Shown: positions 2,751 to 40,186 of the stretch, piece by piece
How positions within the stretch are numbered: position 1 is the first letter of the stretch
How the letters are laid out: each line of letters starts with the position of its first letter
Source: Actinomycetota bacterium
GTDB taxonomy: Bacteria > Actinomycetota > Acidimicrobiia > Actinomarinales > Actinomarinaceae
Direction of reading: 5' to 3'
Length of the DNA stretch: 60,630 nucleotides
Assembly: GCA_027729925.1 (NCBI GenBank)
Contig: JAQCEB010000004.1
Coordinates: forward strand, 1 to 60,630
The notes under the pieces: generated by a model
Seen by the model: only the letters and a program-made list of their open reading frames with translations
Databases searched by the model: none
Told to the model about the DNA's origin: nothing
Made by a program: the position numbers and the translations under genes

Positions 2751-3776
2751 TTATACCTTTTTCGCATTGAGAACATAAAAACCTCCTAAGCCATTTAGAT
2801 TTAAAATAGTTTCTAATCCAAGAATCTTATCTTGAAGTTTTAGTTGCTCCAATCCTTCTGAGGAATTTTTCAAATTTTTTAAAGTTTTTAATAAAGTAAC
2901 TGCACCGCAACTTTCCAAAAATTTTTTTTGAGTGATGATAGAGGCTTTATATCCATATTTTATAAATAAATTTTGCAGTGCTGAAAAATTAATATCATAA
3001 GTTATATCAACTTCACCAAAATTTAATATTGGATCTCCTGCTAGGTGGTGGTTCTTGTATGTTCGTAATAATGACGTGTACTTTTTATTTATTCTCTCTT
3101 TTTGGAAATACCCGTAATCAAAAAACATAAAATTATTAGGTTGGAAATTTTTAATTAGCTTAATTATAAATTCTTGAATATTAGTTTGAACTTCAATTTC
3201 AAATTCTTCGCAACCAGAAATATTGTTAGATGTTAACCATTTTTTATTTTTGTCTCTAATTGAAAGAAGTTCATATCGAAAATTTTCATTTGAAATATCT
3301 ACACCTTTTTCGAACCATTTATTATTTTTATAAATTGCTATTGAACATGGTATGTTATCTAATATTTCATTCCCAAAAATTAAGTCTATTGTTTGATTTT
3401 TCAATTTGGAGGGAGAGTCGACAATTTGAATGCCAAGGTTTTGTAGTTCTTTTCTTGCAGTTGCAGACCTTTCCACAGCTAAAAGTCTACTCTTCTTTTC
3501 ATCAGTGAAATTTTTAATTAATGAACCTGTACCACTACCAAGCTCCAATAATGTACCTCTTATGTTATTTACTTCTATCCAATTTTCTATTAAATTACCA
3601 AAATACTCTGAAACTTCGGGTGAAGTTAAAAAATCTCCTGTTTTTTTTGATCGAGTTTTTTCATTATTGAAAAATCCATATTTAGAATATAATGACTCTT
3701 CCATAAATTGGTCAAAATATAACGATTTAGATTTATATTTTTCTATTAAGTATTTTTTTTTGTCTTTACCAATCAA
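2751..3776 (-). CDS. SAM-dependent methyltransferase, NDUFAF7/MidA family
   Basis: FDQFMEESLY, GDFLTSPEVS, ELGSGTG (SAM motif), NEILDNIP, DYG, DITYDINF. Starts 2 nt after the nuoN stop. Confidence 0.85.
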   Translation of the reverse strand: MIGKDKKKYLIEKYKSKSLYFDQFMEESLYSKYGFFNNEKTRSKKTGDFLTSPEVSEYFGNLIENWIEVNNIRGTLLELGSGTGSLIKNFTDEKKSRLLAVERSATARKELQNLGIQIVDSPSKLKNQTIDLIFGNEILDNIPCSIAIYKNNKWFEKGVDISNENFRYELLSIRDKNKKWLTSNNISGCEEFEIEVQTNIQEFIIKLIKNFQPNNFMFFDYGYFQKERINKKYTSLLRTYKNHHLAGDPILNFGEVDITYDINFSALQNLFIKYGYKASIITQKKFLESCGAVTLLKTLKNLKNSSEGLEQLKLQDKILGLETILNLNGLGGFYVLNAKKV

Positions 3777-3778
3777 AA

Positions 3779-5257
3779 TTAATTATTAAGAAAAGTAGAA
3801 GCTATATCACCTAGATTGCTAAATATTCCTGGAAAAATTCCCGACAATACTGTAATAAAAACTGTTATAAGACCAACAACCTTTATTGGATTTTCAATTA
3901 ACATATTTTTCTCAGAGTATTCTTGAACTTGTTCATCCATCCATATAATCTTTGAAATTCTTGCATAATAAACTAATGAAATTACAGCGTTAACTGCACC
4001 GACAATACCAAGAATGACGCCGATTGTTTGGCCAGAACCCAATAAGCTCCTAAATACAACAAACTTTGCAAACCAACCGCCAAGAGGGGGAACCCCAGCT
4101 AGAGAAAAAAAGAATAAAGTTGTTAATACGCCAATAAATGGTGAAGATTTTGCCACTCCTGACCATTTATATATGTCTTCAGATCCTGTAAATCTAATCA
4201 GAACCTGAACACATAAAAATGCCCCTAAATTCATAAATGCATAAATTATTAAGTAAGTTACACTTGCAAAAATTCCATCTTCATAATTTCCAGTGATACC
4301 TGAAACAGCTATTGGTGAAATAATGAATCCAGCTTGTGCAATTGAAGAGTAAGCTAGCAACCTCACAGGGTTACTTTGTTGAAGAGCAACCAAATTACCT
4401 AGTGTCATGGTCATACCAGCTACTAGAAATAAAATTATTCCCCAACTACTTCCTGAAATGCCGTAAACAGAAGTCATTAATAAAATAAGGGCCACGAATC
4501 CAGCAGCTTTTGAACTTACTGACAAATAAGCAGTAACAGGGAGTGGAGCTCCTTCGTAAGTATCAGGTGCCCATGAATGAAATGGAACAGTTGAAACTTT
4601 AAAACCTAATCCTGAAATTACCAATACTGCGCTTAATAGAACAACTGGAGAATTTTCCAAAGAGCTCGTCAAAATTTGTTTTGAAATCTCGTTAAATAAT
4701 AAATTTCCTGTTAATCCATATAGAAGAGAGAAACCATAAAGAATTAAAGAAGCAGATAGGACTCCAAGTAAAAAGAATTTAATAGCACCTTCATTTGATT
4801 TTCGATCACCTTTTTTCCATCCTGAAAGTAAAAACATTGGAGTTGAAGCTAATTCGATGCCGATAAAAATAGTCAATAAATCTCTGGACGAACAAATAAC
4901 TAAGGCACCGAGTAGAGAACTTAGTAATAAGAAATAGTATTCACCTTGATAGTATTTGTCACTCTCAATAAAATTAATCGACAATAAAAATGTTATGTAG
5001 GTAATAATTATGAACAAACCTTTTAATATGATTGAAAATTTATCAATAACATAACTGTCTTGGAATACGTATATAGCAGATGTGTAGCTTATCCAATGGA
5101 TTAACAAAGGTACTAGTGAAACTAAGGTTCCCAATAATGCAAATGCAGCAATTAGATATTTGGATTTACGTGGTAAAAGTAAATCTAAGAATATAGAAAT
5201 TACTAATGTAGCAATAATTACTAATTCTGTTGAGATTGCATAATAATTTATAGTAAT
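3779..5257 (-). CDS. nuoN: NADH-quinone oxidoreductase subunit N (11-subunit cluster), proposed ATT start
   Basis: FKVSTVPFHSWAPDTYEGAP, RLLAYSSIAQAG. The frame stays open 41 codons upstream of the track's TTG (ITINYYAISTELVII...) to ATT 5257, 6 nt after GGAGG. Confidence 0.9.
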   Translation of the reverse strand: MTINYYAISTELVIIATLVISIFLDLLLPRKSKYLIAAFALLGTLVSLVPLLIHWISYTSAIYVFQDSYVIDKFSIILKGLFIIITYITFLLSINFIESDKYYQGEYYFLLLSSLLGALVICSSRDLLTIFIGIELASTPMFLLSGWKKGDRKSNEGAIKFFLLGVLSASLILYGFSLLYGLTGNLLFNEISKQILTSSLENSPVVLLSAVLVISGLGFKVSTVPFHSWAPDTYEGAPLPVTAYLSVSSKAAGFVALILLMTSVYGISGSSWGIILFLVAGMTMTLGNLVALQQSNPVRLLAYSSIAQAGFIISPIAVSGITGNYEDGIFASVTYLIIYAFMNLGAFLCVQVLIRFTGSEDIYKWSGVAKSSPFIGVLTTLFFFSLAGVPPLGGWFAKFVVFRSLLGSGQTIGVILGIVGAVNAVISLVYYARISKIIWMDEQVQEYSEKNMLIENPIKVVGLITVFITVLSGIFPGIFSNLGDIASTFLNN

Positions 5258-5259
5258 TT

Positions 5260-6828
5260 TTAACCTCCAAAAGCTTTAAAAATTAAATCAACAACAGCAT
5301 CATTTGTAGCACCAAAAATTAACTTAGGAAATATTCCTATTAGAACAGTCAGAATTACTAGAGGAATCCATGCTGCTAATTCGTAATTGTCAGCGTCATG
5401 AAGCTCTTTATCTTTCCACTCGTCTGCAGGTTCACCTAAATTAACTCTCTGTAACATCCAAAGTAGGTACCCTGCTGTTAGTACTGTTCCTATTGCACCA
5501 GCAACCATTGATGACCTAAAGATTACAATATTCAAGCCTTGGAGTGGGTTATAAGCTCCAAGTAATGCCATAAATTCTCCCCAAAAACCTGCGAGTCCTG
5601 GTAAACCTAATGAAGCCATTGCAGTAAAACCAAGCAAGGCACCGGTTTTTGGAAGCAACTTCATATTGCCACCTAGTCGTCCCATATCTCTTGTATGGTA
5701 TGTGTGAGACATAGAGCCGGTTAAGAAAAATAGTAGTCCTGTTATTACTCCATGTGCCACCATTCCAATTATTGCTGCATTTATTCCAACTGATGTTAGT
5801 GAAGCTATTCCAAGCATTACAAAACCCATGTGACCTACAGAAGAAAATGCAATTAATCTTTTCAAATCAGTCTGTGCTAAGCAAGCAAGTGAACCATAAA
5901 TAATCCCTATTGCTGAAAGTATTGCTATTGCAGGAGCCCAAGCTTTTGCTTGCTCTGGAAGAATTGGAATAGCAATTCTTATAAAACCATATGACCCAAG
6001 TTTTAATAATATAGCAGCTAAAAGAACAGAGCCAACTGTAGGTGCAGCTGTATGTGCATCTGGTAACCAAGTATGTAGTGGCCACATTGGAACTTTAACT
6101 GCAAAACCTAAAAACAGAACAGCAAAAACTAGAGTGGCAAATGTTCCTGTAAAAGCACCTGTACTTCCAATTTCAATTAATTCAGGTATGCTAAATGTCT
6201 TATTCCCTCTATAGTACAAACCTAAAAATCCAAGCAACATAAATGCAGATCCAAATAAGGTAAATACAAAAAACTTAATGCTTGCATATAACCTTGTTTC
6301 AATTTCTTTTTTTAACCCAGAGACTGACCTAATAGTTTTATCACCCCAAATACCAATCATGAAATACATTGGCAAAAGAACTATTTCAAAAAATACAAAG
6401 AACAGAATTAAATCCAATGCTACAAAAGTTCCATTCATCCCAGTTTCAAGTACCAGAATCAAAGCAAGAAAACCTTTTGGACTTTTTGGTTCAGGTAAAT
6501 GCTCTAGAGAATATATTATTGCTAAAACTGAAATAAATGTTGAAAGCACCAATAGAGGAAGAGAAATTCCATCAATGCCAATTTCATAATTAGCATTTAT
6601 GCTTTCGATCCAAGTAGCTTTGCTTCCTAATTGAAGTTGTGATGCTTTAGAAAAATCAAACTCAAGTAAAACCAGAATGCTCAAAATAAAAGTTACCACT
6701 GAAGACAGTAAAGCAACTCCTTTTATTACACTTTCGTATGGTTTAGGTATGAATAAAATTAAAAGTGCACTTATAATTGGCAAGAAAACAACCGCACTTA
6801 ATCCCAAACCGTTTGATAATATTTCCAC
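5260..6828 (-). CDS. nuoM: NADH-quinone oxidoreductase subunit M (11-subunit cluster)
   Basis: FEIVLLPMY, AVKVPMWPLHTWLPDAH, KRLIAFSSVGHMG. Confidence 0.95.
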   Translation of the reverse strand: MEILSNGLGLSAVVFLPIISALLILFIPKPYESVIKGVALLSSVVTFILSILVLLEFDFSKASQLQLGSKATWIESINANYEIGIDGISLPLLVLSTFISVLAIIYSLEHLPEPKSPKGFLALILVLETGMNGTFVALDLILFFVFFEIVLLPMYFMIGIWGDKTIRSVSGLKKEIETRLYASIKFFVFTLFGSAFMLLGFLGLYYRGNKTFSIPELIEIGSTGAFTGTFATLVFAVLFLGFAVKVPMWPLHTWLPDAHTAAPTVGSVLLAAILLKLGSYGFIRIAIPILPEQAKAWAPAIAILSAIGIIYGSLACLAQTDLKRLIAFSSVGHMGFVMLGIASLTSVGINAAIIGMVAHGVITGLLFFLTGSMSHTYHTRDMGRLGGNMKLLPKTGALLGFTAMASLGLPGLAGFWGEFMALLGAYNPLQGLNIVIFRSSMVAGAIGTVLTAGYLLWMLQRVNLGEPADEWKDKELHDADNYELAAWIPLVILTVLIGIFPKLIFGATNDAVVDLIFKAFGG

Positions 6829-6837
6829 TTTTTCCTC

Positions 6838-8838
6838 CTAAATAATAAACAGAATTAACAAACTAATTGTTACAACACCAGCTAAAAACAACATTAAATA
6901 TTGTTGGGTTTTGCCTGTTTGTAATAATTTAACTTTTCCACCAAAGCTGTCAGTGCTGGTAGAAGAGGCATTTAAAAACTTATCAATACCTTTTTGATCA
7001 AAATTATTATAGACAATTTGACCAAGAAAAGAAGCAGCTAAACCAAATGAATTAATAATTCGATCTAAAAAATTCGTATTAATTCTATCAACAGCATTTG
7101 CAATTGTTAATTTAGTTGGATTAATTAAATACTTGAAATAGAAATGATCTAAGTAATATTTATTTTCTAGAACAGTCCAAATTGGCTCTACTTTAATTAA
7201 TTTGTCACCTTTATCAGCAGATCCCTGAAGTTGATAAACAAAATAACCTAAACCTATTCCGAGTAAGCCAGCAATTAATCCAGAAAACAGAGCTGTGTAA
7301 TCAAAACTTTCAGGATGATATTCATTAATTTTATTTGCTCTTGTTGTTACCCATGTAGTAAAGCCTGTATACACCCCTGGAATGTTTACCCAACCTGCTC
7401 CAATTGCAAATACTGCAAGAAACATTAATGGGACAGTCATCATTTTATCTGACTCATGTGGATGACCGTGGCCTCTATACTCACCCAAGAATGTTAATGC
7501 TACTGCTCTAGTCATATAGAAAGCCGTAACAAAAGCGCCAATAATTGAGATAACTAAAAAAGTAGTTTCACCTTCATGATTGAGTGATGCTAAAATCTCA
7601 TCTTTTGAAAAGAATCCTGCAAACGGTGGTAAGCCAGCTAGAGCTACTGTCCCAATTATAAAAGTTATAAAGGTTCTAGGCATATATTTTCTTAAACCAC
7701 CCATCTCTAACATACTATTTGTGTGGACAGCATGAATAACTGATCCTGCTCCTAAAAATAAAAGTGCTTTAAAAAAAGCATGAGTCCATAAATGAAAAAG
7801 TGATGCTGTATAAGCTCCAGATCCTATTGCAGCAACCATATAGCCTAACTGACTAACAGTCGAATATGCTAAAACTTTTTTTAAATCATCCTGAACAACT
7901 GCAATAAGTCCAGCTGTTATTAAAGTAATTACTCCAAATAACATAACTATGTCCAACGCTTCATGAGCCATGGCTTCGTAAAAAGGAAACATTCTTGCAA
8001 GTAAATAAACACCTGCTGTTACCATTGTTGCTGCATGCATCAGAGCTGAAACAGGAGTTGGACCTGCCATGGCATCTGGCAACCAAACATGTAATGGAAA
8101 TTGAGCACTTTTACCCATAGCACCAATAAACAATAAAACGCCTGCGACAAACGCAACATTTTTAATATCTTCGTAATCGTGAGTTGATTGATAGAGTATT
8201 TCTGAAATTCTTAATGTCCCAGTATTTAAAGCTAAAATTATGATTCCAATCATTAATCCTATATCAGCTATTTTGTTTGTTATAAAAGCTTTCATTGCAG
8301 CAGATGAGTTGTCTTTAGTCTCCCAATAATGACCTATAAGCAAATATGAACAAACTCCAACTAATTCCCAACCAATAAGAATTTGAATTAATGTAGGTGA
8401 AGATACAAGAACTAACATGCTTCCAGCAAACAAAGTAAGAGAAGTAAAGAAAAACGTATATCTAACTTCACCTTTCATATAATTTGTTGCATAAATAAAT
8501 ACCAAAAGTGCAACAGTGCCAACAACAAAGTACATCATAATTGAAAGTCCATCAACAACCCATCCAAATTCAATATCAAAAGTTCCAATATTGCCAACTA
8601 CAATAAAAAATTCATTTACTATGCCTTCTGTAATGTGTTTATAAAGTAGTGCAGAGCTATAGAAAAAAATTGATCCTATTGTTGCTAAAGCAATTTCTGC
8701 ACCTTTATAAGGTAGTTTTTTTCCAAAGAAAGTAATGATTAAAGCTGAAATAAATGGAAGCACTACTAATATCCAAGCATATTCTGCAAAGACACCGCCA
8801 TCACCATACGAAAGTTTAGATTCAGCTAGAAGGTTCAC
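6838..8838 (-). CDS. nuoL: NADH-quinone oxidoreductase subunit L (11-subunit cluster)
   Basis: GKSAQFPLHVWLPDAMAGPTPVSALMHAATMV, HAFFKALLFL. Confidence 0.95.
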   Translation of the reverse strand: MNLLAESKLSYGDGGVFAEYAWILVVLPFISALIITFFGKKLPYKGAEIALATIGSIFFYSSALLYKHITEGIVNEFFIVVGNIGTFDIEFGWVVDGLSIMMYFVVGTVALLVFIYATNYMKGEVRYTFFFTSLTLFAGSMLVLVSSPTLIQILIGWELVGVCSYLLIGHYWETKDNSSAAMKAFITNKIADIGLMIGIIILALNTGTLRISEILYQSTHDYEDIKNVAFVAGVLLFIGAMGKSAQFPLHVWLPDAMAGPTPVSALMHAATMVTAGVYLLARMFPFYEAMAHEALDIVMLFGVITLITAGLIAVVQDDLKKVLAYSTVSQLGYMVAAIGSGAYTASLFHLWTHAFFKALLFLGAGSVIHAVHTNSMLEMGGLRKYMPRTFITFIIGTVALAGLPPFAGFFSKDEILASLNHEGETTFLVISIIGAFVTAFYMTRAVALTFLGEYRGHGHPHESDKMMTVPLMFLAVFAIGAGWVNIPGVYTGFTTWVTTRANKINEYHPESFDYTALFSGLIAGLLGIGLGYFVYQLQGSADKGDKLIKVEPIWTVLENKYYLDHFYFKYLINPTKLTIANAVDRINTNFLDRIINSFGLAASFLGQIVYNNFDQKGIDKFLNASSTSTDSFGGKVKLLQTGKTQQYLMLFLAGVVTISLLILFII

Positions 8839-8846
8839 TTATTTTC

Positions 8847-9152
8847 CTACCATTTCATTAAATCAAATTCATTAATATTAGCTGTTTGTCTGTTTCTAAA
8901 AAGCATCAAGACTATAGCAAGCCCTATCCCAACTTCAGCAGCTGCAATAGTAATAATGAAAATAGAAAATATCTGTCCACCCATCATTGTGTCTGACAAC
9001 ATAGCATCGAATAAAACAAAATTTATATTTACAGAATTAAGAATCAGTTCGATTGATAAAAGAACCATAACTGCATTTCTTCGAACTAAGATTCCATAAA
9101 TTCCAAGTGAAAAAAGTGCGGCAGCAACAATTAATACAGGTTGAACTATCAT
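8847..9152 (-). CDS. nuoK: NADH-quinone oxidoreductase subunit K (11-subunit cluster)
   Basis: SIELILNSVN, AAAEVGIGLAIV, 101 aa. Confidence 0.95.
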   Translation of the reverse strand: MIVQPVLIVAAALFSLGIYGILVRRNAVMVLLSIELILNSVNINFVLFDAMLSDTMMGGQIFSIFIITIAAAEVGIGLAIVLMLFRNRQTANINEFDLMKW

Positions 9153-9667
9153 ATTTGGTCTTCGTTAATTAGAGCATCGTCTTTTCTGGCAAGTGTTATA
9201 CCTCCTATAAGTGCAGCAAGTAAAACAAACGAAACTATTTCAAATGGAAAAACAAATCTTGTTAATAAAATTTCACCCAACAATTGTGTGGAAGATGCCT
9301 GATCTATTGTAATCTCACCACTAAATCCACTAATTAAAATAAAAGAAAAAAGTAGGAAAATTGCAAAAGCTAATATAGCACCTGCTTTTTTGTTTTTATC
9401 ATTATCTAATTCAGCATTCTTACCAAGTGGAGCTCTCGTTATCATAATTCCGAATAAAAAGAGAACTATTACTGCACCTATGTATACAAGTATTAATACT
9501 AGGGCGACAAACTCAGCAGAAAGTAGTAAGAATAATGTTGCAGTTAGCGCAAGTGTAAATACTAATGAAACTGCGGCGTGAATAACATTTGTTGTGGTTA
9601 CTACTCTTAATGCTGTTGAAAGTAGCAACAGTAGAACAAAATAAGTGACTATTTCATAAATTTCCAT
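9149..9667 (-). CDS. nuoJ: NADH-quinone oxidoreductase subunit J (11-subunit cluster)
   Basis: LVYIGAVIVLFLFGIM, FPFEIVSFVLLAALIG. Confidence 0.93.
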   Translation of the reverse strand: MEIYEIVTYFVLLLLLSTALRVVTTTNVIHAAVSLVFTLALTATLFLLLSAEFVALVLILVYIGAVIVLFLFGIMITRAPLGKNAELDNDKNKKAGAILAFAIFLLFSFILISGFSGEITIDQASSTQLLGEILLTRFVFPFEIVSFVLLAALIGGITLARKDDALINEDQI

Positions 9668-9669
9668 TA

Positions 9670-10155
9670 TTAATTCTCTAGACCTTCTGGTTCAGGAACT
9701 GTTTTTAACCATTCATCGAGCCTTGCTTTATTATGAAGCATATCACCCATATTAAATTCAGAATACTCATATTCGGGTGACCAAAATAAAGCATCGAATG
9801 GACATACTTCAACACAAATTCCACAGTACATACATAATGCATAATCAATATCAAACCTATCAAGCACTGCACGACTTCTTTGTCTTCCACCGGGAGTGGA
9901 AGGTGGCTGTAATTCTTTGTGACCTTCAATGTAGATACACCAATCAGGACATTGTCTAGCGCATAGCATACAACTAGTGCATGCTTCTTGATCTAATGCA
10001 ATCACTCCTCTAGCTCTTGGGGCTACTTTTTCCTTTTCGAATGGATAATTGACATTTGGATTTGAATGAAATGGTGATAATGTTTTAAACATATTTACTA
10101 TCACAATTTTCATGCCAATTATAAAGCCAGGAATTTTTGGTCTAAAGGTTTTCAT
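9670..10155 (-). CDS. nuoI: NADH-quinone oxidoreductase subunit I (11-subunit cluster)
   Basis: Two CxxCxxCxxxCP motifs. Start moved to ATG 10155, which overlaps the nuoH TAA. Confidence 0.93.
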
Positions 10156-11126
10156 TACAACACCACTTTCAATACTGCAGTTATTAGTATATTTAATAAT
10201 GAAGCAGGTATTAAGAATTTCCAAGCAAGGTTTTGCAATTGATCTTCCCTAAATCTAGGAAACGACCACCTAACAGCAACCAATATAAACCCTAATATTA
10301 GAGTTTTTGTAATTAGTGATATTGGTCCGTATATATTGACCCACTCAGTTGGAATGAAAGGTAAGTGATATCCTCCAAGAAACAAAGTAGAAGCTACTGC
10401 ACATAAAACAAACATGCTCATGTATTCTGAAATGTAAAATATTAAAAATCTTATACCTGAATATTCAGTCATAAAACCCATTGTTAGTTCAGATTCACCA
10501 ATTGGCATATCAAATGGAACTCTCATCATTTCTGCTGTAGCTGCAATCATAAAAATTAGAAAAGCAACTATTTGCCCACTAAATGCAAAAGGTACTCCCC
10601 ATTCAATTTGTTTTTCAACAATTCCAACTAGAGACATTGTTTCAGCTTGAATAACGACTCCAACAACAGCCAAAATTAAAGGGAGCTCGTATGCAATTAA
10701 TTGGCCAGCAGCCCTTAACCCTCCCATGAGAGAGTATTTGTTAGCGGATGACCAGCCAGCTGTTAAAACTCCAATAGTTGAGAGTGAGCTAATTGCTAAT
10801 GCAAAAAATACTCCAAGTTCTAAATCAACAACAACCAAAGTTGGGCTTAATGGGACAACGGCAAAAAGAGAAACTGCTGAAACAACTACATACGCTGGTG
10901 CCCATTTAAATACTGGCCTATCGACATCAGTTGGAATAATGTCTTCTTTCTGAACAAATTTAAGAATTTCAGCTAAAGGAAATATAAATCCCCTTAAACC
11001 TACATGTAAAGGACCTGGACGCCTTTGCATCCATGAAGCTCCCTTAACATCCATTATGGTAAAAATTACTGCACCATTTAATGCAGCTAAAGCAACAAAT
11101 CCTACTTTGATTAATACATCTGTCAT
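10155..11126 (-). CDS. nuoH: NADH-quinone oxidoreductase subunit H (11-subunit cluster, divergent motifs)
   Basis: [41 protein letters not shown]. Confidence 0.93.
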
Positions 11127-12316
11127 CTATCAACATCTCCTAATACAAAGTCAAGACTACCCATTATTGCAATCAAATCTGGTAAAAGTGCTCCTTCCAG
11201 CATTACTGGAAGAATTGAAACATTGCTAAAAGAAGCTGTTCTAACTTTTAATCTATAAGGTCCTAATCCCCCTTCGGATACAATGTAATAACCCATCTCA
11301 CCTTTTGGATTTTCTGCTCTTACATAAGTTCTTCCTGCAGGAACTTTTATAACTTTTGGAACTTTTGCCTGTAAAGGACCTGAGGGCATATCATCTATTG
11401 CTTGTAAAACAATTTTTGCTGACTCAACCATTTCTCTAGTTCTTACATCCCAACGATCATAGCAATCACCGTTTTGCCCAATTGGTATTTCAAATTCAAA
11501 TTTTTCATAAGGTAGATAGTCAGTTTGAGTTCTTAGATCTGATTTTACCCCTGAAGCTCTAAGAATTGGACCCGATACACCATATGCTTCTGCTGTTTCT
11601 TTTGAAAGAACGCCTACATTCTTAGTTCTCTTATGAAAAACTTCATTTCCTCCAATTAAATTTTGAAATTTATCAGCTGCTTCTATTACTTTTTCCATAG
11701 CTAACTTAGTATCTCTATAAAAACCAACTGGTAAATCTTGGATATTCTTTTTTGTTGTTGGACCAGAACCAGCAGCAGGTTTAACGCCACCAATTCTATT
11801 GAAGTTTGGATGGAATCTCCCTCCAGTTACAGACTCAATAAGATCTAAGACTCTTTCTCTATCTTCCATTGCATAAAAAATTGGAGTTAATGCGCCAACT
11901 TCTAGCGCGTAAGCACCATTGAATACAAAGTGGGAACAAATCCTTGCCATTTCAGTAAGAATTAATCTAATTTGCTTTGCTCTTTCTGGTGCTTCAATCT
12001 CCATCAGTCTTTCTGTGCCGGCTATAAATGGAATCTCATTAGAAAATCCTGCAACCCAATCAATCCTATTAACTAATGTTGTTATTTGAGGATAAGTTCT
12101 TACTTCGGCAAGCTTTTCATACCCTCTATGCATATACCCCAATACAGGCTCTACGTTGTATACTTTTTCTCCGTCAACTTTTGCAACTAATCTGAGAACT
12201 CCATGAGTAGATGGATGCTGCGGACCAATATTTAAAGTCATATCCTCAGTTTCAATTTCAACTGATACAGAGGCTTCAGAAATACTTTGAAAATTACGAG
12301 GATCTATTGTGTTCAA
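11123..12316 (-). CDS. nuoD: NADH-quinone oxidoreductase subunit D (11-subunit cluster)
   Basis: NIGPQHPSTHGVLRL, GYMHRGYEK, C-terminal GDVDR. No hydrogenase CxxC Ni ligands. Confidence 0.95.
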   Translation of the reverse strand: MNTIDPRNFQSISEASVSVEIETEDMTLNIGPQHPSTHGVLRLVAKVDGEKVYNVEPVLGYMHRGYEKLAEVRTYPQITTLVNRIDWVAGFSNEIPFIAGTERLMEIEAPERAKQIRLILTEMARICSHFVFNGAYALEVGALTPIFYAMEDRERVLDLIESVTGGRFHPNFNRIGGVKPAAGSGPTTKKNIQDLPVGFYRDTKLAMEKVIEAADKFQNLIGGNEVFHKRTKNVGVLSKETAEAYGVSGPILRASGVKSDLRTQTDYLPYEKFEFEIPIGQNGDCYDRWDVRTREMVESAKIVLQAIDDMPSGPLQAKVPKVIKVPAGRTYVRAENPKGEMGYYIVSEGGLGPYRLKVRTASFSNVSILPVMLEGALLPDLIAIMGSLDFVLGDVDR

Positions 12317-12318
12317 AA

Positions 12319-12855
12319 TTAAGAATTCTCCTCATCAAAACCTTCAGGCATGCCTTCTACGTCTACATCTCCAGGCCAAGGTTTAACTTCACGACTTATT
12401 AATTCAAATGATTTAAGCATTGGATTACCTTCGTATCCATCTGGAAGATACAATTTTGTTAGATTAGGATGGCCTTCAAAAGTAATACCAAACATTTCAT
12501 AAGCTTCTCTTTCATGCCAATTAGCTCCAACAAATACATTAACTAGAGTTGAAATTGATGGATTTAGTTTAGAGATAAATGTTGAAATTGTAACTAGATT
12601 TGAACTATTAACACTAGAAAGGCAACTCATGATTTCAAATGAGGGATTAACAACTTCTTTAGGTTTATCTCCCACAGAAACTTCATTATCCCAATCTATT
12701 GCTGAAAGCCATGAGAAAAATTTAAGATCAAATTTATCACGAAGAATTTCATGTGTAGATATCCAATTTTCAACATTTACTTTTATTAAAATAGTCTCAA
12801 ACTCATATGAGACATCATTGAAATCTTCTTTAAGTTGATTTAAAAAATCTTCCAT
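12319..12855 (-). CDS. nuoC: NADH-quinone oxidoreductase subunit C (11-subunit cluster)
   Basis: ANWHEREAYEMFGITFEGHP. Start set at ATG 12855. Confidence 0.92.
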   Translation of the reverse strand: MEDFLNQLKEDFNDVSYEFETILIKVNVENWISTHEILRDKFDLKFFSWLSAIDWDNEVSVGDKPKEVVNPSFEIMSCLSSVNSSNLVTISTFISKLNPSISTLVNVFVGANWHEREAYEMFGITFEGHPNLTKLYLPDGYEGNPMLKSFELISREVKPWPGDVDVEGMPEGFDEENS

Positions 12856-12856
12856 G

Positions 12857-13354
12857 TTATAAAGGTTCAACTTGCTTTTCGACCCACTTAGATTTCATAT
12901 CTTCTCCTTTGATTTTTTTCTGAAGAAGTATGATACCTTCCTGTAATGCCTCAGGTCTTGGAGGGCAACCAGGAACATAAACATCTACTGGAATAAGTTG
13001 ATCTACTCCTTTAGTTACCGAATATGAGTCCCAATAAGGACCACCACTATTTGAACAAGAGCCCATTGAAATTACATACTTAGGTTCAGGCATTTGATCA
13101 TATAATCTTTTCACTGAAGGTGCCATCTTGTCAGTAACAGTTCCGGCAACAATCATTAAATCTGCTTGTCTCGGAGAAGCTGGAAGTGGAATAATTCCAA
13201 GTCTCATAAAGTCATGCCTTGGGCCGCTAACAGCCATTACTTCTATAGCACAACATGCTAAACCAAATTGAAAATACCATAATGAATATGCTCTAGCCCA
13301 GTTAAATATAGATGAGATAGGCTTTGGTAAACCAAACTTGTCAACTACTCCCAC
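12857..13354 (-). CDS. nuoB: NADH-quinone oxidoreductase subunit B (11-subunit cluster)
   Basis: [26 protein letters not shown] (N2 ligands). Confidence 0.95.
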
Positions 13355-13710
13355 TTTAAAACATCCTTCCTAATTGCATAAATTAATCCGATAAGCAATA
13401 TAAAGATAAATATAAACATTTCAATTAATCCAAAATATCCGAGTTTTTCAAGATTAATTGCCCAGGGGAAAATGAATACTGCTTCAACATCAAAAATAAC
13501 AAATAATAGTCCAAAAATATAATACCTGACATAAGTTTGACTCCATCCTGAACCAACTGGATCTACTCCACATTCATATGTAGTAAGTTTTTCTGCGTAC
13601 GGTTTATTCGGTCTTAATACGGACGCAAGTCCAACTAAAAGCATCATAAAAAATAATCCGAACGAGAGTACCGCTCCCACAGTTACATAATTCTGAAAAT
13701 AAGAAATCAT
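13345..13710 (-). CDS. nuoA: NADH-quinone oxidoreductase subunit A (11-subunit cluster)
   Basis: [19 protein letters not shown]. Confidence 0.95.
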
Positions 13711-13716
13711 ACTTTT

Positions 13717-13722
13717 ACTTTA
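13717..13722 (-). promoter_or_regulatory. Putative -10 hexamer TAAAGT for a leaderless nuoA transcript
   Basis: TANNNT exactly 6 nt upstream of ATG 13710, no SD. Confidence 0.45.
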
Positions 13723-13789
13723 GTCCAGCCTCTAAAAAGTTTAGTTTTTTCTAAAACTTCGGAGAAATTATTTGTAAGATTTTTTATAA

Positions 13790-14878
13790 GTGAAAACACA
13801 AAAATTTTTAATTGAACCAAACCTAGTAGATCTGTCTAAAACAGTAATTAACACTGTTTTGGGAAAGAAATTTTACGAACTTCGATTTAATAACTTGTTA
13901 GACGAAAAAATAAACGATGCTGAATCTATTAATTTTATTTTAGCTGATGGTTTAGGTTTCAAAAACTTACAGGAAACTGACAGTTGGCTAAATTCGAATA
14001 TATCTAAAAGCATTTTTACAACCTTCCCATCCTCTACAAATGTAGCATTAAGTTCACTTACATTGGCTAATAATCCTGGGAAGACTGGGATTATAGGTTA
14101 TTTTATGTTCGATAAAAAATACAATCATTTAATCAATGCTCTTGTATGGAATTCTGAAAATACTAATTTAATTAAAAACGAATTTTATAAAAAGCAAAAA
14201 ACAATTTGGAGCACACTAAACGAATCAAAAATTTTCTATAACATTTTTCAACCAAAAAATTTAGTTGGTACAACATTATCCAATTTCATCTATTTTTCTG
14301 AAAAAGTAACAGGTTATCTAGACAATAAAGAATTAATTGAATTAATGTCAGATTCACTATTTTTAGAAAATAGATTTAATTTTATTTATTATCCAAAAAT
14401 TGATGTAGCAGCTCATTTGTATGGTGTAGGTAGTAAAGAGTGGTCAAGAGAAATATTTGAATTTGAAAAATTGATAAATATTTTAAATACTTCAACAAAT
14501 AAAAAATCTTATACGGTTGTAACATCTGATCACGGTTTGGTAAATATTACTAAAAATAATAAATTTGAAATTCAGTACTCTGAAGATATAAAAATTTATG
14601 GGGATCAAAGATCTGTTTTTATAAATGGAGAAAAAAATAAAATTAATAGAGCATTCAAAAATGTACCCGGAGAATTAATAAATAAAGCAGAGTTGAAAGA
14701 ATATTTTGAAATATCTGAAGATAATTTTATAGAGAGAATATTTCCTGATTTTTGTTTTCTCCTGAAAGATTCATCAATTGTTATTCCAAAACACTTGAAA
14801 GCTCCATTAATTGGGTACCATGGTGGATTGTCTGATTCAGAAATATTAATACCGATTATTGAAATATCCAATTATTAG
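13790..14878 (+). CDS. Alkaline phosphatase superfamily protein (nucleotide pyrophosphatase/phosphodiesterase type)
   Basis: ADGLG, TTFPSSTNVA, DVAAH, TSDHG, GYHGG metal and nucleophile motifs. Confidence 0.85.
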   Translation: MKTQKFLIEPNLVDLSKTVINTVLGKKFYELRFNNLLDEKINDAESINFILADGLGFKNLQETDSWLNSNISKSIFTTFPSSTNVALSSLTLANNPGKTGIIGYFMFDKKYNHLINALVWNSENTNLIKNEFYKKQKTIWSTLNESKIFYNIFQPKNLVGTTLSNFIYFSEKVTGYLDNKELIELMSDSLFLENRFNFIYYPKIDVAAHLYGVGSKEWSREIFEFEKLINILNTSTNKKSYTVVTSDHGLVNITKNNKFEIQYSEDIKIYGDQRSVFINGEKNKINRAFKNVPGELINKAELKEYFEISEDNFIERIFPDFCFLLKDSSIVIPKHLKAPLIGYHGGLSDSEILIPIIEISNY

Positions 14879-25783: not shown

Positions 25784-25915
25784 CTATTCTTTATTTTCTT
25801 TTCTTTGCTTACTTCTTAACCATGTTAGTAGTAAAGCTGGTACAAGGAAATATAGTAATTCGTCCCATCCACCTTGATGCTGAAACGTGGGTGGTGGAAT
25901 ATATTTAATTAACAT
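25784..25915 (-). CDS. Unannotated 43-aa single-pass membrane protein coupled to nuoN
   Basis: MLIKYIPPPTFQHQGGWDELLYFLVPALLLTWLRSKQRKENKE. ATG overlaps the nuoN TAA (TAATG). TM helix plus basic tail. Confidence 0.7.
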   Translation of the reverse strand: MLIKYIPPPTFQHQGGWDELLYFLVPALLLTWLRSKQRKENKE

Positions 25916-27387
25916 TAAATATAATTTTCTACGACCCAGCGAGTTAGATTTATCAGTACATTTGGAAGAATACCTAGTAACAAAGTTACTACTGCAAGTA
26001 AACCAACTGAAACTTTGTCTGAAGTCGAAATATCAATTTTTGATAAAGGATTTTCATTTTTTTCAATTGATGCAATCCAAATTGGTCTTAAGTAAAAATA
26101 AAATCCAACAACAGTAGATAGCATCAAAACAACAACAAGTAAATATTTTTCATATGACCATAAATTAGTTATGAGTATGAATTTTGATACAAAACCACTT
26201 GTTAATGGCATTCCAGCTAAACCAAACATAAAAATAGAAAAACTAATAGTTAGAAATTTATTATTCAAAAACAATCCAGATAGTTCACCTATTTCAAAAT
26301 TTGAGGTAAGTTGCCCTTTAATAATTGAAAATATAGAAAATATTCCAAGAAGCTGAACAATATATGAAAACAAATAAAATAAAGACGCGCTTATTCCAAA
26401 CACACCTGAAACCATTCCAGATAAAATAAAACCTGATTGAATAACTCCACTATAAGCAATAAGACGTTTTAAATCCGTTTGGTTAGTAGCAAATAATGCA
26501 CCTAATAATGCTGATAAAAGTACAACGATAGTAAAAAATAATTCGAACTTATCTAGAATAAAACGAATTGAAATAGCTGAAATTCGAGCTAACACTATAA
26601 AAGATGCCGCCTTAGCAGTAGTTGCCATATAACCCACAAAACCTGTTGGTGAACCTTGATAAACATCTGGTGCCCAAGCTTGAAATGGCGCTGCAGCTAC
26701 TTTGAACAGTAATCCGACAATTATAAAAATCATTCCAATTAAAGTTGTTAAAGGTACATTTTGTGCGCCAATAAAATTTATTGCAATACTTGTTTCATAT
26801 ACACCACTAATTGAAAGCGATACATACAATAGTGCAACACCATAGATTAATACGCATGAAGCTAGTGAACCTAATAGAAAATACTTTAATGAAGCTTCAT
26901 TGCTTAATTTGTCTCCTCGATTTAGTCCAGCAAGTGCATAAAGGCTTATTGATCCAATCTCCAATCCAATAAAAAGCATTATAAAATTTTCGGAATCGAT
27001 CATAAGCAAAAATCCAGAAGCAGACATTAAAATAAGAATTATTGCCTCTGTGGTTTTACCTTCAAGGCTTGCAGATGTCTTCCAAAATGAATTAAATGTG
27101 AACAATAAAATTAAGCCAATTAAGACATTTCCAAATAATGAGAACTCATCTAATAATATTTTTTCAGAAAAATATGATGAAACTCCGTCTGTTAAATACA
27201 AACCAAATTTAAGAAATATAAAAAAGTTTGTTAACAAAATCCCTAAAAAAGTAATTAATTTTTTCAAAACATCTGATGATGGAATAGTGATTGTAAAAAA
27301 AAGTAAAATTAGCGCAGTTAATACTAAAACAACTGTTGGAGATATCACTATAAAATTAAAACCTATTATTTCAGATATAGATATCAT
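25915..27387 (-). CDS. nuoN: NADH-quinone oxidoreductase subunit N (14-subunit cluster)
   Basis: EASLKYFLLG, FKVAAAPFQAWAPDVYQGSP. Confidence 0.95.
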   Translation of the reverse strand: MISISEIIGFNFIVISPTVVLVLTALILLFFTITIPSSDVLKKLITFLGILLTNFFIFLKFGLYLTDGVSSYFSEKILLDEFSLFGNVLIGLILLFTFNSFWKTSASLEGKTTEAIILILMSASGFLLMIDSENFIMLFIGLEIGSISLYALAGLNRGDKLSNEASLKYFLLGSLASCVLIYGVALLYVSLSISGVYETSIAINFIGAQNVPLTTLIGMIFIIVGLLFKVAAAPFQAWAPDVYQGSPTGFVGYMATTAKAASFIVLARISAISIRFILDKFELFFTIVVLLSALLGALFATNQTDLKRLIAYSGVIQSGFILSGMVSGVFGISASLFYLFSYIVQLLGIFSIFSIIKGQLTSNFEIGELSGLFLNNKFLTISFSIFMFGLAGMPLTSGFVSKFILITNLWSYEKYLLVVVLMLSTVVGFYFYLRPIWIASIEKNENPLSKIDISTSDKVSVGLLAVVTLLLGILPNVLINLTRWVVENYI

Positions 27388-28871
27388 TTACCACCCACAA
27401 AATAAAATATTAACTCACTTAAATATTCTGACTCCTCAGAAACTAAATTTTCTAATTTACCAGGAAATATTCCAATTAATAACATAAGAATTAGCAGAGG
27501 CATTACAGAAATAATTTCCCTGTAGTTTAAATCTAATAAAGTGTTATTTTCTTCATTTACTATAGTTCCAGTAAACATTCTTTGGTAAGCCCAAAGCATA
27601 TAAATAGCAGCAAGAACTACGCCAAATGCAGAAATGATAGATAAAACTTTAAAAGCTTCAAAGCTGCCCATTAAAATTTTAAATTCACCTACGAAACCAT
27701 TAAGTCCAGGTAAACCTATTGAAGCAAATGAAGTAAAAAGGAATATCCCTGCATAAAGTGGCATTCTTAACTTTAAACCACCAAAGTCACTTATTTTTCT
27801 TGTATGTCTTCTGTCATATATAAAACCAACAAGCATAAATAATGCGCCAGAAGTAATCCCATGGTTAACCATTTGAATTATTGCACCTTCAATACTTAAA
27901 TATGCACCAGCTGAAATACCAAGCATTACAAATCCCATATGACTAACTGAAGAATATGCAATTAGTTTCTTAATATCTATTTGTGCAATAGCTACAATAG
28001 CTCCATAAATAATTCCCACTACAGACAAACAAGCTATTAAAAATCTAAACTGTATAAATCCTTCGGTAAAGAAGGGTATTGACACACGAAGTATTCCGTA
28101 TGCTCCAACTTTTAACAAAACTCCAGCAAGTAAGATACTTCCCGCTGTTGGAGCTTCAACGTGAGCATCTGGTAACCAAGTATGTAGTGGGAATAATGGT
28201 ACTTTTATTAAAAATCCTATAGTGAATAATGCAAAAAGAACTTTCGATTGTGATGAACTAAAACTTAATTGGGATAAGGTATTGTAATCCAAAGCTAGTC
28301 TGCCATTAACTGAATAACTTAATAGGCCTGTGTAAATAGTTCCTATAAATATAAAAATAGAACCGAATACTGTATAAATTATAAATTTTATAGTTGCATA
28401 GCGTCTATTTTCACCTCCCCATATACCCATAAGAAAGTACATAGGAATTAATATTGCTTCAAAAAAAATAAAAAGAGAAACTAAGTCTCCACTAATGAAA
28501 ACTCCATTAATTGCAAAATGGAGAGTTAAAATTGATCCAATAAATCCTTTACTCTGAGAATGACTATCAGAGACAGAAAGTATTGAAACGGTGACTAGTA
28601 ATGCACTTAATACAAGTAGTAAAATTGACATTCCAGACAATCCAAAATTTAAATCTAATCCATAAAGACTGATCCATTCAAATGAAGCGTAAGTTTTAAA
28701 ATTACCTGTAAGTTTTGAATCAAAAAGTAAATAGACAGCTTGTGTTAGTGAAATTAAAGTAAACAAAATACTTACAGGTCTGAAAAGTTCAACTCTATTT
28801 TTTGGAATAATGAAAATAAAGAATGATCCAAAAAGTGGAACTAATAACAATGAAAAGATTACAGCATTCAT
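27384..28871 (-). CDS. nuoM: NADH-quinone oxidoreductase subunit M
   Basis: FEAILIPMY, IKVPLFPLHTWLPDAHVEAP. Confidence 0.95.
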   Translation of the reverse strand: MNAVIFSLLLVPLFGSFFIFIIPKNRVELFRPVSILFTLISLTQAVYLLFDSKLTGNFKTYASFEWISLYGLDLNFGLSGMSILLLVLSALLVTVSILSVSDSHSQSKGFIGSILTLHFAINGVFISGDLVSLFIFFEAILIPMYFLMGIWGGENRRYATIKFIIYTVFGSIFIFIGTIYTGLLSYSVNGRLALDYNTLSQLSFSSSQSKVLFALFTIGFLIKVPLFPLHTWLPDAHVEAPTAGSILLAGVLLKVGAYGILRVSIPFFTEGFIQFRFLIACLSVVGIIYGAIVAIAQIDIKKLIAYSSVSHMGFVMLGISAGAYLSIEGAIIQMVNHGITSGALFMLVGFIYDRRHTRKISDFGGLKLRMPLYAGIFLFTSFASIGLPGLNGFVGEFKILMGSFEAFKVLSIISAFGVVLAAIYMLWAYQRMFTGTIVNEENNTLLDLNYREIISVMPLLILMLLIGIFPGKLENLVSEESEYLSELIFYFVGGK

Positions 28872-30772
28872 TAATTACCTACCAAAGGTGTAACAATAAA
28901 CACTGCTACTAAAATAATTAAGAAAAATCCGAAGTATAAAACATAATTTCTCACTAAACCTGTCTGTGATGAAGAGGTTATTTTTGCAGATTTACTAAAT
29001 GAATTAGCAACAAGATTCACTGTTCCATCAATTAAAATACTATCAATTATTACAGCTACCCTTTTTGAAAACAGCTTAGCTCCAGCAACAAAAATAACAT
29101 TTCCAATTTTATTTAGATATAGAACATTAAATGATGCTTCTTTGATGAATTTTATCAGTTTTTTGAATCCGTCATTATTGAATAACTTACTCTGCAAAAT
29201 ATTTTGACTGAAAATTAAATAAGCTAAGAATAAACCAGCAAAACCTGCTCCAATAGAAATCAAAGCAAGAACAACTAATGTTAATCCTTCAGGTAGATGA
29301 GTTATCTCAACTTCTTCTAATGTAATGTGTAAAAGCTTTTCTACGCCATGAAAGAAAGGTGTATTTACAAATCCAATAAAAATTGAAAATATTCCAAGAA
29401 CAACTAAAGGAACTTTCATGTTTCTTGGTGCATCATGAATATCTTCAATAGTTTTACTTGGCTCAGAATTAAATATCAATAACCAGTGTCTACCCATATA
29501 AAATGCTGTTAAAACGGCAGCAAATAATGTAAGTGCCCAAAAGCCTAAATATATTCCACCTTTAGAGAATATCGATGCAAGTATTTCATCTTTAGACCAA
29601 AAACCAGCTAAAGGTGGTATACCTGAAATGGCTAGTGTTCCTATACCCATCATTCCTGCAGTTAGAGGCATTTTCTTTCTTAAGCCTCCCATATTTCTAA
29701 TATCTTGTTCATGATGAAGTGCTTCAATTACCGCACCAGCTCCAAGGAACAACAAAGCTTTAAAGAAAGCATGGGTAAGTAAATGGAATACTGCTGCTAC
29801 ATATGCGCCAACACCGATAGCAATAAACATAAAGCCTAGTTGGGAAATAGTTGAATAAGCTAATACTTTTTTAATATCATATTGATTAATTGCTGAAAAA
29901 GCAGATATTAAAGCTGTTAACAAACCAATAACTAAAACAACGAAACTTGTGGTTTCGGAATATTGTAATAGAGGTGATATTCTCACGAGCATAAATACAC
30001 CAGCTGTAACCATTGTTGCAGCATGAATTAATGCACTAGCAGGAGTTGGTCCTTCCATCGCATCTGGTAACCAACTAAATAAAGGAAACTGTGCTGATTT
30101 ACCAAATGCTCCCAGAATCAAAAAAAGGGTAATAACTGTAATAGTGTTTACTGGTATTTCGTTAGCTCTATGCAACACCTCCTGAAAATCAAAGCTCTTA
30201 AAAGTATTTAAGATAAACATGAGACCAACTAAAAAACCAAAATCTCCAATTCTGTTTAATATAAAGGCTTTATTTCCAGCTTTTGAAGCAGATGTCTTAC
30301 TTGACCAGAATGAGATTAACAAGTAAGAACTTAAACCTACCAGCTCCCAACCTAGAAACATAATTAAAAAATTTGATGACATAACAAGAACTAACATTGA
30401 AAAAACGAAAAAATTAAAATAAACAAAATATTTCCTATAATTTTCATCTTTACTCATATAAGAAGTTGAAAATTGTTGGATGAAAATCGATAAACCACTA
30501 ACTAATAAAAGCATTAGTGCGGATAAGCCATCAAGTGTAAAACTAAAATCTATCTTTGGTGATTCTGTCCACTGGTAAAGCACGACCGAGTATGATTCAA
30601 ATTTTTCAATTGTAAAAGTTATAAAAATGAAACTTGTAATTAAAAATGATATGACACTACTTGATAAAGTAAAAATATTTACAATTGATTCTTTAATTAA
30701 ATTTCTTTGAGTAAATAGAAAAATTGCTGTCACCAGAGGAAGGAATACCGGTACTAAAACTAAATTTTCCAT
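28871..30772 (-). CDS. nuoL: NADH-quinone oxidoreductase subunit L
   Basis: GKSAQFPLFSWLPDAMEGPTP, THAFFKALLFL. Confidence 0.95.
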   Translation of the reverse strand: MENLVLVPVFLPLVTAIFLFTQRNLIKESIVNIFTLSSSVISFLITSFIFITFTIEKFESYSVVLYQWTESPKIDFSFTLDGLSALMLLLVSGLSIFIQQFSTSYMSKDENYRKYFVYFNFFVFSMLVLVMSSNFLIMFLGWELVGLSSYLLISFWSSKTSASKAGNKAFILNRIGDFGFLVGLMFILNTFKSFDFQEVLHRANEIPVNTITVITLFLILGAFGKSAQFPLFSWLPDAMEGPTPASALIHAATMVTAGVFMLVRISPLLQYSETTSFVVLVIGLLTALISAFSAINQYDIKKVLAYSTISQLGFMFIAIGVGAYVAAVFHLLTHAFFKALLFLGAGAVIEALHHEQDIRNMGGLRKKMPLTAGMMGIGTLAISGIPPLAGFWSKDEILASIFSKGGIYLGFWALTLFAAVLTAFYMGRHWLLIFNSEPSKTIEDIHDAPRNMKVPLVVLGIFSIFIGFVNTPFFHGVEKLLHITLEEVEITHLPEGLTLVVLALISIGAGFAGLFLAYLIFSQNILQSKLFNNDGFKKLIKFIKEASFNVLYLNKIGNVIFVAGAKLFSKRVAVIIDSILIDGTVNLVANSFSKSAKITSSSQTGLVRNYVLYFGFFLIILVAVFIVTPLVGN

Positions 30773-31081
30773 TTAACCTCTAGATAAATTTAAAACATCA
30801 ACTGATGCTGATGACTGTTTCCTGAAAATTGAAACTATAATTGCTAATCCAACTACAACTTCTGCAGCGGCTACAACAAGTACGAAAAATACAGCAACTT
30901 GACCATCAATAGTTCCAAAATGTTTGGAAGCAGCAATAAAAGTTAAATTTACAGCATTAAGCATTAATTCGATGCACATAAACATAATTAAGGCATTTCT
31001 TCTAATCATCATGCCAAAAAAACCTATTGAAAAAAGTACAGCTGCAAGGCTTAGATACCAATCTGTTGTTACTTCAAACAT
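30773..31081 (-). CDS. nuoK: NADH-quinone oxidoreductase subunit K
   Basis: [21 protein letters not shown]. Start set at ATG 31081. Confidence 0.95.
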
Positions 31082-32216: not shown

Positions 32217-32219
32217 AAT

Positions 32220-40168: not shown

Positions 40169-40186
40169 CTTCTATCCTCCCTTTAT

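Follow-up and report, generated by a model that had tools for sequence, protein, structure and literature searches.

Two complex I operons in the window and the quinone-site residues of the second NuoD

The stretch of DNA analysed here (the window: 60,630 nucleotides of contig JAQCEB010000004.1, from a marine actinobacterium of the Actinomarinaceae) encodes respiratory complex I twice, both times on the minus strand. A complete 14-gene nuo operon lies at 25915-40168, and a second, 11-gene operon lacks nuoEFG, the genes of the module that oxidises reduced nicotinamide adenine dinucleotide (NADH; the N module). Our subject is NuoD of the 11-gene operon, which carries tryptophan at a position where, to our knowledge, every complex I studied has a quinone-binding tyrosine. 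This tyrosine (Tyr87 in Thermus, Tyr108 in the bovine enzyme) and the His38-Asp139 pair are regarded as universal ligands and proton donors of the quinone site, and most models of coupling start there. The operon, the gene and the residues in question are located as follows.

3779-13710, minus strand: nuoABCDHIJKLMN operon, 11 genes, without nuoEFG (from gene order and family profiles; also in metatranscriptome contigs)
11123-12316, minus strand: nuoD of the 11-gene (NuoEFG-less) operon, Trp type, 397 aa, protein P0001 (from its NF004739 score and phmmer against Nqo4)
12203-12217, minus strand: His34-His38 of the beta1-beta2 loop (HPSTH), kept (from alignment to Nqo4; invariant in alignment A1 and the survey alignments)
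12125-12127, minus strand: Arg64 codon of HRG, at the position of the methylated arginine of mitochondrial NDUFS2
12068-12070, minus strand: Asn83 codon, replacing the canonical Asp of the (T/x)DRxDY motif (clade-specific by sequence comparison)
12056-12058, minus strand: TGG codon for Trp87, aligned with the quinone ligand Tyr87 of Thermus Nqo4 (from gapless alignment)
11912-11914, minus strand: Ala135 codon, at the position of Thermus Thr135; Asp or Glu here in relatives with Gln139
11900-11902, minus strand: GAA codon for Glu139, aligned with Asp139, which pairs with His38 (from sequence and alignment; the clade has Glu or Gln)
11147-11152, minus strand: Asp389-Phe390 codons, at the positions of Thermus Asp401-Pro402 (from residue frequencies in the clade)

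The protein belongs to the NuoD family: it scores 408.9 bits with NF004739 against a cut-off of 360, and PF00346 is annotated in all its homologues. It falls below the cut-offs of TIGR01962 (415.7 against 459) and NF008974 (435 against 522). Aligned by phmmer with T. thermophilus Nqo4 (2fug_4; E-value 2.2e-97), residues 19-178 run without a gap, so that query and Thermus numbering are the same in that stretch. RIDW87 pairs with RMDY87 and ALE139VGA with LLD139LGA; on the plus strand the two codons read CCA at 12056-12058 (coding TGG, Trp) and TTC at 11900-11902 (coding GAA, Glu). The claim of the original prediction that tryptophan replaces the quinone tyrosine was thereby borne out, and the gapless stretch rules out that the tryptophan was merely misaligned with the tyrosine. 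Neither Tyr87 nor Asp139 is present, Trp87 and Glu139 standing in their places, and the carboxylate at 139 is kept, though not as aspartate.

The surroundings of these two positions are those of a NuoD. The sequence GPQHPSTHG matches Thermus residues 31-39 with His34 and His38 intact, as had been noted, and the positions of the former NiFe site read RIDW and SLDFVLGD, with no cysteine. About 24 residues (Thermus 313-337) are missing relative to Thermus Nqo4. Arg64 does not vary in alignment A1 or the survey alignments; the canonical paralogue has HTG. That paralogue, in the 14-gene operon, does carry the canonical tyrosine and aspartate (TTRMDYLSPL and GGMDIGALS), in agreement with the motifs first read from it.

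The Trp type in sampled actinobacterial NuoD sequences

We surveyed the occurrence of the tryptophan at three depths. All of the 120 closest database homologues (80-96% identity, from marine Actinomarina and relatives) read RIDW and have Glu139. A motif-independent homology search of 151 Acidimicrobiia genomes from 81 genera found a close orthologue together with a second, canonical NuoD in 143 of the 151. We then sampled one orthologue per family from about 30 families, extracting orthologues by k-mer match to the query NuoD; 40 were taken, of which one was a fragment without the site, and Trp87 was present in the 39 of 39 that covered it. Across the phylum, a profile of Trp-type sequences run over 401 Actinomycetota genomes gave matches with E-values of 5e-143 or better in at least 150. 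Fifty sequences sampled from this high range, representing about 20 further families, all have Trp87 and Glu139, and 27 actinobacterial NuoD sequences sampled from a lower range (E-values of 1e-91 to 1e-125) all have tyrosine. As every high-range sequence has Trp and every low-range sequence Tyr, the Trp type is a discrete group and not one end of a gradient. In a group of Nocardioidaceae, Trp was read in about 117 of 119 sequences; the motif search missed the stretch in the remaining two.

Tryptophan has a single codon, and its invariance in every orthologue sampled therefore puts Trp87 far beyond chance. Sequencing error or a local oddity is likewise excluded, since the Trp codon is kept in all sampled orthologues and in RNA contigs.

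In a maximum-likelihood tree of 127 NuoD sequences (a quick IQ-TREE search with support from the Shimodaira-Hasegawa-like approximate likelihood ratio test, SH-aLRT, and no bootstrap), the Trp-type clade, represented by 21 rows, is monophyletic with SH-aLRT 100. The window NuoD nests with the Acidimicrobiia orthologues inside it, and the canonical paralogue of the window lies far away. The nearest Tyr-type relative (P0125, 50% identity) is encoded in a stand-alone 11-gene operon, which indicates that the Trp clade belongs to an N-module-less lineage and is no recent copy of the canonical gene. Besides its place in the tree, the window NuoD has Met62, Asn83, Trp87, Phe390 and a carboxylate at 139 or 135, and it is encoded in an operon without nuoEFG in a genome with a canonical nuoA-N elsewhere. 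In the samples examined the clade is confined to Actinomycetota. On these sequence comparisons, Trp87 is the defining residue of an ancient actinobacterial NuoD clade that belongs to an N-module-less second complex I, which goes by the name Nuo2/NuoD2 in Streptomyces. The tryptophan had been treated as a trait of this one genome; the survey of DW against DY motifs makes it a clade hallmark across Actinomycetota.

Independent origins of the Trp are seen in a few sequences from archaea (Methanonatronarchaeales, Methanofastidiosia), whose systems likewise have no NuoEFG. A Methanonatronarchaeales metagenome-assembled genome (MAG) has an N-module-less operon (L173:4711-16134) in which four antiporter-like genes accompany A, B, a fused CD, H, I, a split J and K; the encoded NuoCD has Trp at the Tyr position (DRMDW) and retains Asp139. 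In a Methanofastidiosia MAG (L174:3956-10341), the genes for NuoB and for a fused NuoCD that also has this Trp are followed downstream by those for a 552-aa polyferredoxin/FrhB-like protein and then a 904-aa FAD-binding/CCG (HdrD-like) protein, with no membrane subunits within the 10.5 kb contig. This set may be a soluble module that works without quinone.

Residues that change together with Trp87

Comparing 92 Trp-type with 92 Tyr-type NuoD sequences column by column, we noted that few columns split the two types cleanly: Met62, Asn83, Trp87, Lys179, Asn336, Tyr343 and Phe390 (Thermus 402). Asn83, where the canonical residue is Asp, occurs in 98% of the Trp-type sequences and in 1% of the Tyr-type ones, and Phe390 in 92 of 92 as against 8%. 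Of the 92 canonical sequences, 90 have Asp or Asn at position 389 (Thermus Asp401), where most of the Trp clade has Tyr or Phe; within the clade, Asp389 is limited to an Actinomarinales-like group that includes the window. Positions 86/87 and 401-404 stem from the former NiFe site and line the quinone chamber in Thermus (PMC4758237). With both sets lining the chamber, the deep end of the pocket is expected to be markedly more aromatic in the Trp type.

The carboxylate near His38 follows a second pattern. Position 139 is Glu in 56 Trp-type sequences and Gln in 36, and the residue one helix turn before it, at 135, covaries with it: Ser or Ala135 goes with Glu139 (56 sequences) and Asp or Glu135 with Gln139 (36), in 92 of 92 with no exceptions. 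Gln139 is confined to Acidimicrobiia, where it marks a well-supported subclade whose carboxylate has shifted by one helix turn. The original prediction had reported a change from Asp to Glu, which holds for the window (Glu139) but understates the pattern, as the clade has either Glu139 or Gln139 with Asp/Glu135. That a carboxylate on this helix face is always kept, even if moved, and that the His loop is invariant argue that the proton-coupled chemistry on the His side is retained. Outside the 92 sequences, the orphan Trp-type nuoD of one contig (L176:6860-11182, the contig of P0275) has Ser at position 139.

The proposal of a remodelled acceptor site gains support from the invariance of Trp87 under strong purifying selection together with the changes at Asn83, Phe390 and, in most of the clade, 401, and with those of NuoH within Acidimicrobiia. 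The tryptophan, put forward as the strongest sign of a functionally distinct complex, is indeed the clearest difference in sequence from the canonical one.

Other subunits of the two operons

The partners that a complex I NuoD is expected to have, namely NuoB with cluster N2, NuoH and the antiporter-like subunits, are all encoded in the 11-gene operon, in which NuoA, NuoH and the membrane arm are complete. The nuoD and nuoH genes overlap.

10155-11126, minus strand: nuoH of the 11-gene operon, with a remodelled quinone-channel lining (from motif comparison of 73 NuoH)
12857-13354, minus strand: nuoB of the 11-gene operon, cluster N2 ligands intact (motifs kept in 71 Trp-type NuoB)
37516-38892, minus strand: comparator nuoD of the 14-gene operon, canonical Tyr and Asp (RMDY, MDIGA; TIGR01962 539.8 bits against a cut-off of 459)

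NuoB keeps all four cysteines of cluster N2 (pattern CCxxE...C...CP, including VPGCPP), and they are conserved in the 71 Trp-type NuoB sequences; the retention of the N2 ligands noted earlier is thus confirmed from the motifs. In the NuoB motif YSVTKGVDQ, all 71 sequences have Lys in place of the arginine known to be hydroxylated in PSST of mammals (VVRG). This Arg-to-Lys change near N2 was considered as a discriminating feature and rejected: the canonical NuoB of the genome has Gln there, so that the arginine is conserved in neither actinobacterial enzyme.

NuoH departs further from the canonical form. Of 73 Acidimicrobiia Trp-type sequences, 72 have Ile or Val and one has Phe in place of the first Glu of the canonical ExExE in the loop between transmembrane helices 5 and 6; here the lost Glu corresponds to codon 209 (10500-10502), and the paralogue of the 14-gene operon reads VEAEQEL. 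The ER motif that precedes MQxRxGP near the start of NuoH is lost as well, the Arg position being hydrophobic in 73 of 73. The NuoH changes first seen in the window thus hold across the Acidimicrobiia members of the clade. The quinone-channel lining of Acidimicrobiia Trp-type NuoH is also more hydrophobic than in the canonical paralogue. The closest match of the NuoH of the 11-gene operon is cyanobacterial NdhA (E-value 2.6e-65).

Genomic context, electron input and expression

Among 80 related loci, the order ABCDHIJKLMN is kept in those long enough to show it, with two insertions. In two MAGs (L070 and L074, Microthrixaceae and Acidimicrobiales) nuoI and the genes after it lie about 3-6 kb further from nuoH than usual, with an insert between nuoH and nuoI. 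Antiporter-like genes of the canonical nuoL/M/N type stand directly upstream in 22 of 42 long loci, and the Trp-type operon is arranged in tandem with the complete nuo operon in many genomes across the phylum. All 60 Trp-type genomes tested (41 genera) encode NuoF, in many of them at a distance of about 13-28 kb from the Trp-type nuoD within one contig (e.g. G160:C73, G213:C1, G503:C1 and G199:C1). With NuoF in 60 of 60, the Trp-type complex always accompanies a canonical complex I.

A gene for an NDUFAF7-like methyltransferase often follows the Trp-type operon. The orphan nuoD of L176 lies about 2 kb from a gene of the same family (Methyltransf_28), among neighbours typical of Actinomycetes (folate genes, ftsH, hpt), and so associates Trp-type NuoD with this methyltransferase family in a second kind of genomic setting. 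Genomes of 7-10 Mb in the Actinomycetota sample also contain orphan Trp-type nuoD genes, with NRHDW and ELG motifs.

We clustered the flanking open reading frames of the 42 long loci and found no conserved neighbour fit to serve as an input module. The clusters were only the last part of the canonical nuo operon, the gene for the NDUFAF7-like methyltransferase, one of the phosphodiesterase family and antisense artefacts due to high GC content, and a conserved neighbour was rejected as the source of electrons. Input from coenzyme F420 through FpoF, proposed in PMC7771536, was rejected as well: PF04432 has no match in the 88%-complete genome, which thus shows no FpoF/FrhB homologue, and the NuoD scores 327 bits with the FpoD model NF040602 against a cut-off of 600.

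Four metatranscriptomes (X1-X4) contain contigs that match almost all of the 11-gene operon with at least 99% identity, and the Trp codon is the same in them. Mean contig depth in run X1 was about 7.7 for the 11-gene operon against 2.6 for the 14-gene operon, about threefold, although such depths are an unreliable guide to expression and carried-over DNA may contribute. The metatranscriptome contigs also cover the 11-gene operon (3700-13800) more completely than the 14-gene operon (25900-40200). Some of the RNA runs are labelled as freshwater metagenomes though the organism is marine.

Quinone supply

MenB is encoded in 108 of 115 Acidimicrobiia genomes outside Actinomarina, and MqnA was found in 0 of the 151 genomes of the class, which rules out the futalosine pathway as the source of menaquinone in all 151. 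With MenB common and MqnA absent, the usual Trp-type host synthesises menaquinone through the classical pathway, and both complexes use it. A different quinone, as suggested originally, is unlikely to account for the clade in general: cells with the Trp type also have a canonical Tyr/Asp complex I, and nearly all other Acidimicrobiia have MenB.

A proposed remodelled menaquinone site and competing explanations

We consider, with moderate confidence, that the best explanation of the comparisons above is a remodelled, aromatic-lined and still proton-coupled menaquinone site in a second complex I. The deep end of the quinone pocket would have been rebuilt by the changes Tyr87 to Trp, Thermus 402 to Phe and Asp83 to Asn, with 401 becoming Tyr or Phe in most members and staying Asp in the window. 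The His34/His38 loop, cluster N2 and one carboxylate near His38 (Glu139, or Asp/Glu135 with Gln139) are strictly kept, and proton-coupled menaquinone chemistry would continue at the site. The indole of Trp87, backed by Phe390, may offer a hydrogen-bond donor and a stacking face to the naphthoquinone ring. Ligation of quinone by a Trp N-H is known from complex II, and stacking on Trp from the A1 site of photosystem I. The indole would be unable to supply the proton given by the Tyr hydroxyl in canonical complex I, and protons would instead arrive by the His38/carboxylate side and water. We put forward only tentatively, and with some doubt, that the enzyme is a fully coupled pump without the Tyr87 proton donor and, in the Gln139 subclade, without the canonical His38-Asp139 pair.

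Data on engineered enzymes bear on this reading. Mutating the tyrosine, including to Trp, severely reduces decylubiquinone activity and confers strong inhibitor resistance (PMC4758237), and the Yarrowia Y144F/W/H mutants keep inhibitor-sensitive reduction of Q1 and Q2 (PMC9120487). By analogy with Yarrowia Y144W and the E. coli mutants, the Trp-type site is expected to be poorly sensitive to inhibitors of the piericidin and rotenone classes. The substitution and the position in these mutants (Yarrowia Y144W; variants of Tyr273 in E. coli NuoCD) are those of the natural enzyme. The mutants, however, are single changes in a ubiquinone enzyme and lose activity with long-chain quinone, whereas the natural variant has Asn83, Phe390 and Glu139 as well and has been kept across a phylum. 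Given these co-adapted residues and this retention, the natural Trp-type enzyme is presumably fully functional, working beside the canonical NADH-oxidising complex I in the same cell.

Several observations weigh against a menaquinone site of this kind. In the same cells the canonical complex I works on this menaquinone with Tyr and Asp, so that the use of menaquinone by itself leaves the tryptophan unexplained. In NuoH, the loss of the loop Glu and of the ER motif may mean a more radical change of substrate or of coupling. The adjacency of Trp87 and Phe390 would follow from known Thermus geometry, in which both positions belong to the former NiFe site. In the genus of the window itself, MenB was found in 0 of 36 sampled genomes and MenD above cut-off in 0 of 41, and MqnA is absent. 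The window genome does encode a divergent prenyltransferase resembling MenA (517 aa, of which 170 residues form an N-terminal extension) beside a MenG/UbiE-like methyltransferase (G000 contig C3:4119-4790 and flanks, L121), which suggests that the genus salvages the head group or prenylates a different one.

It is possible, though we think it unlikely, that the site is tuned instead for the reverse reaction, in which proton-motive force, partly made by rhodopsin in Actinomarina, would drive the oxidation of menaquinol to yield a low-potential reductant, or for a partner other than quinone. The absence of the NADH module, of a conserved input gene beside the operon and of an FpoF/FrhB homologue in this genome would fit such a role, as would a NuoH without the ER motif and one loop Glu, the missing menaquinone head-group pathway in the genus, and the independent change from Tyr to Trp in archaeal N-module-less systems, in L174 beside FrhB-like and HdrD-like genes. 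Against it stand the strict conservation of the His34/His38 loop and of the carboxylate beside it, the completeness of NuoA, NuoH and the membrane arm, the ability of most hosts to make menaquinone and the MenA-like and MenG-like pair kept even in the window genome, and the sequence gives no sign of direction.

A second alternative, that Trp87 and the change at 401 are driven by inhibitor resistance, would make this complex I a backup insensitive to antibiotics of the quinone site, such as piericidin, that Actinobacteria make. Degli Esposti 2015 (PMC4758237) described Tyr87Trp with a change at 401 in NuoD of piericidin-producing Streptomyces, tied these to mutants resistant to rotenone and other inhibitors, called them unique or very rare and linked them to self-resistance. 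That residue pair matches the signature of the Trp type, which in our samples is confined to Actinomycetota and always stands alongside a canonical complex I. The sequence described there is probably the NuoD2 paralogue, and the pair probably marks that paralogue throughout the phylum, not producers as such. The Trp type is not limited to producers, occurring in at least 150 of 401 Actinomycetota genomes and in open-ocean Actinomarina of about 1 Mb without obvious exposure, and its deep invariance, co-adapted residues and moved carboxylate point to a catalytic role, of which resistance may be a by-product. We find it improbable that resistance is the driving force.

It is likewise improbable that the 14-gene operon nearby lends its NuoEFG to the 11 subunits, giving a second NADH:menaquinone isozyme with an altered quinone site: the constant presence of NuoF, its frequent proximity and the canonical-type nuoL/M/N genes upstream speak for it, but the stand-alone 11-gene operon of P0125 and the distance of NuoD2 from canonical NuoD in the tree speak against it, and borrowing concerns the electron donor and leaves the change of Tyr to Trp unexplained.

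Relation to known systems

Canonical NuoD (Nqo4; the 49-kDa subunit, NDUFS2) shares with the window protein the fold family PF00346, the absence of the NiFe cysteines, an identical His34/His38 loop and the partners NuoB, with its four N2 cysteines, and NuoH. It differs at Trp87, Glu139, Asn83 and Phe390 and in an operon that includes nuoEFG. The other 11-subunit enzymes (cyanobacterial NDH-1, Desulfitobacterium Nuo11, Chlorobi) have the same subunit set without the N module, with ferredoxin as donor where the donor is known. Unlike the window NuoD, however, cyanobacterial NdhH and the relative P0125 keep the tyrosine, and the window protein scores 342 bits with the NdhH model NF005649 against a cut-off of 583.

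Knowledge of 11-subunit complexes in Actinobacteria goes back to 2011 (PMC3144371), and that of the nuo2 set of Streptomyces to at least 2013. The latter, with its separate nuoD2, is likewise a second, N-module-less nuo set beside a complete nuoA-N (PMC3765725, PMC8388888). The orphan Trp-type nuoD genes of the 7-10 Mb genomes fit this published arrangement, whereas the nuoD of the window lies inside a contiguous ABCDHIJKLMN operon that includes nuoC and has Asp at position 401 where Streptomyces-like sequences have Phe. A truncated nuo paralogue has been described in Candidatus Actinomarinales (Lopez-Perez et al. 2020, PMC7771536): it is the same operon in the same group of organisms, lying beside a heliorhodopsin gene and a complete nuo operon. 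That paper proposes coenzyme F420 as donor by analogy with Methanosarcina Fpo and, in the passages retrieved from it, does not mention the quinone site; the window differs from Fpo in the low FpoD score and the absence of an FpoF/FrhB homologue given above. In the literature searched we found no statement that Trp87 defines a phylum-wide clade, that it has specific partner residues or that the carboxylate has been relocated.

Implications

A large and ancient clade that has Trp in place of the tyrosine and has moved or replaced the aspartate, yet keeps the His loop, cluster N2 and the pumping arm, is a natural experiment on quinone reduction, and Trp-type enzymes are available in organisms that can be grown and are genetically tractable. 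For marine ecology, one of the most abundant actinobacteria of the surface ocean keeps a non-canonical complex I, present in metatranscriptomes, without genes for the menaquinone head group. If the Trp-type enzyme is indeed a fully coupled pump, two residues central to models of quinone protonation and coupling would be replaceable, and a phylum would hold a second, aromatic-caged solution to the quinone site, possibly with other proton bookkeeping or a preferred reverse direction, which could be studied in culturable Streptomyces, Nocardioides and Ilumatobacter.

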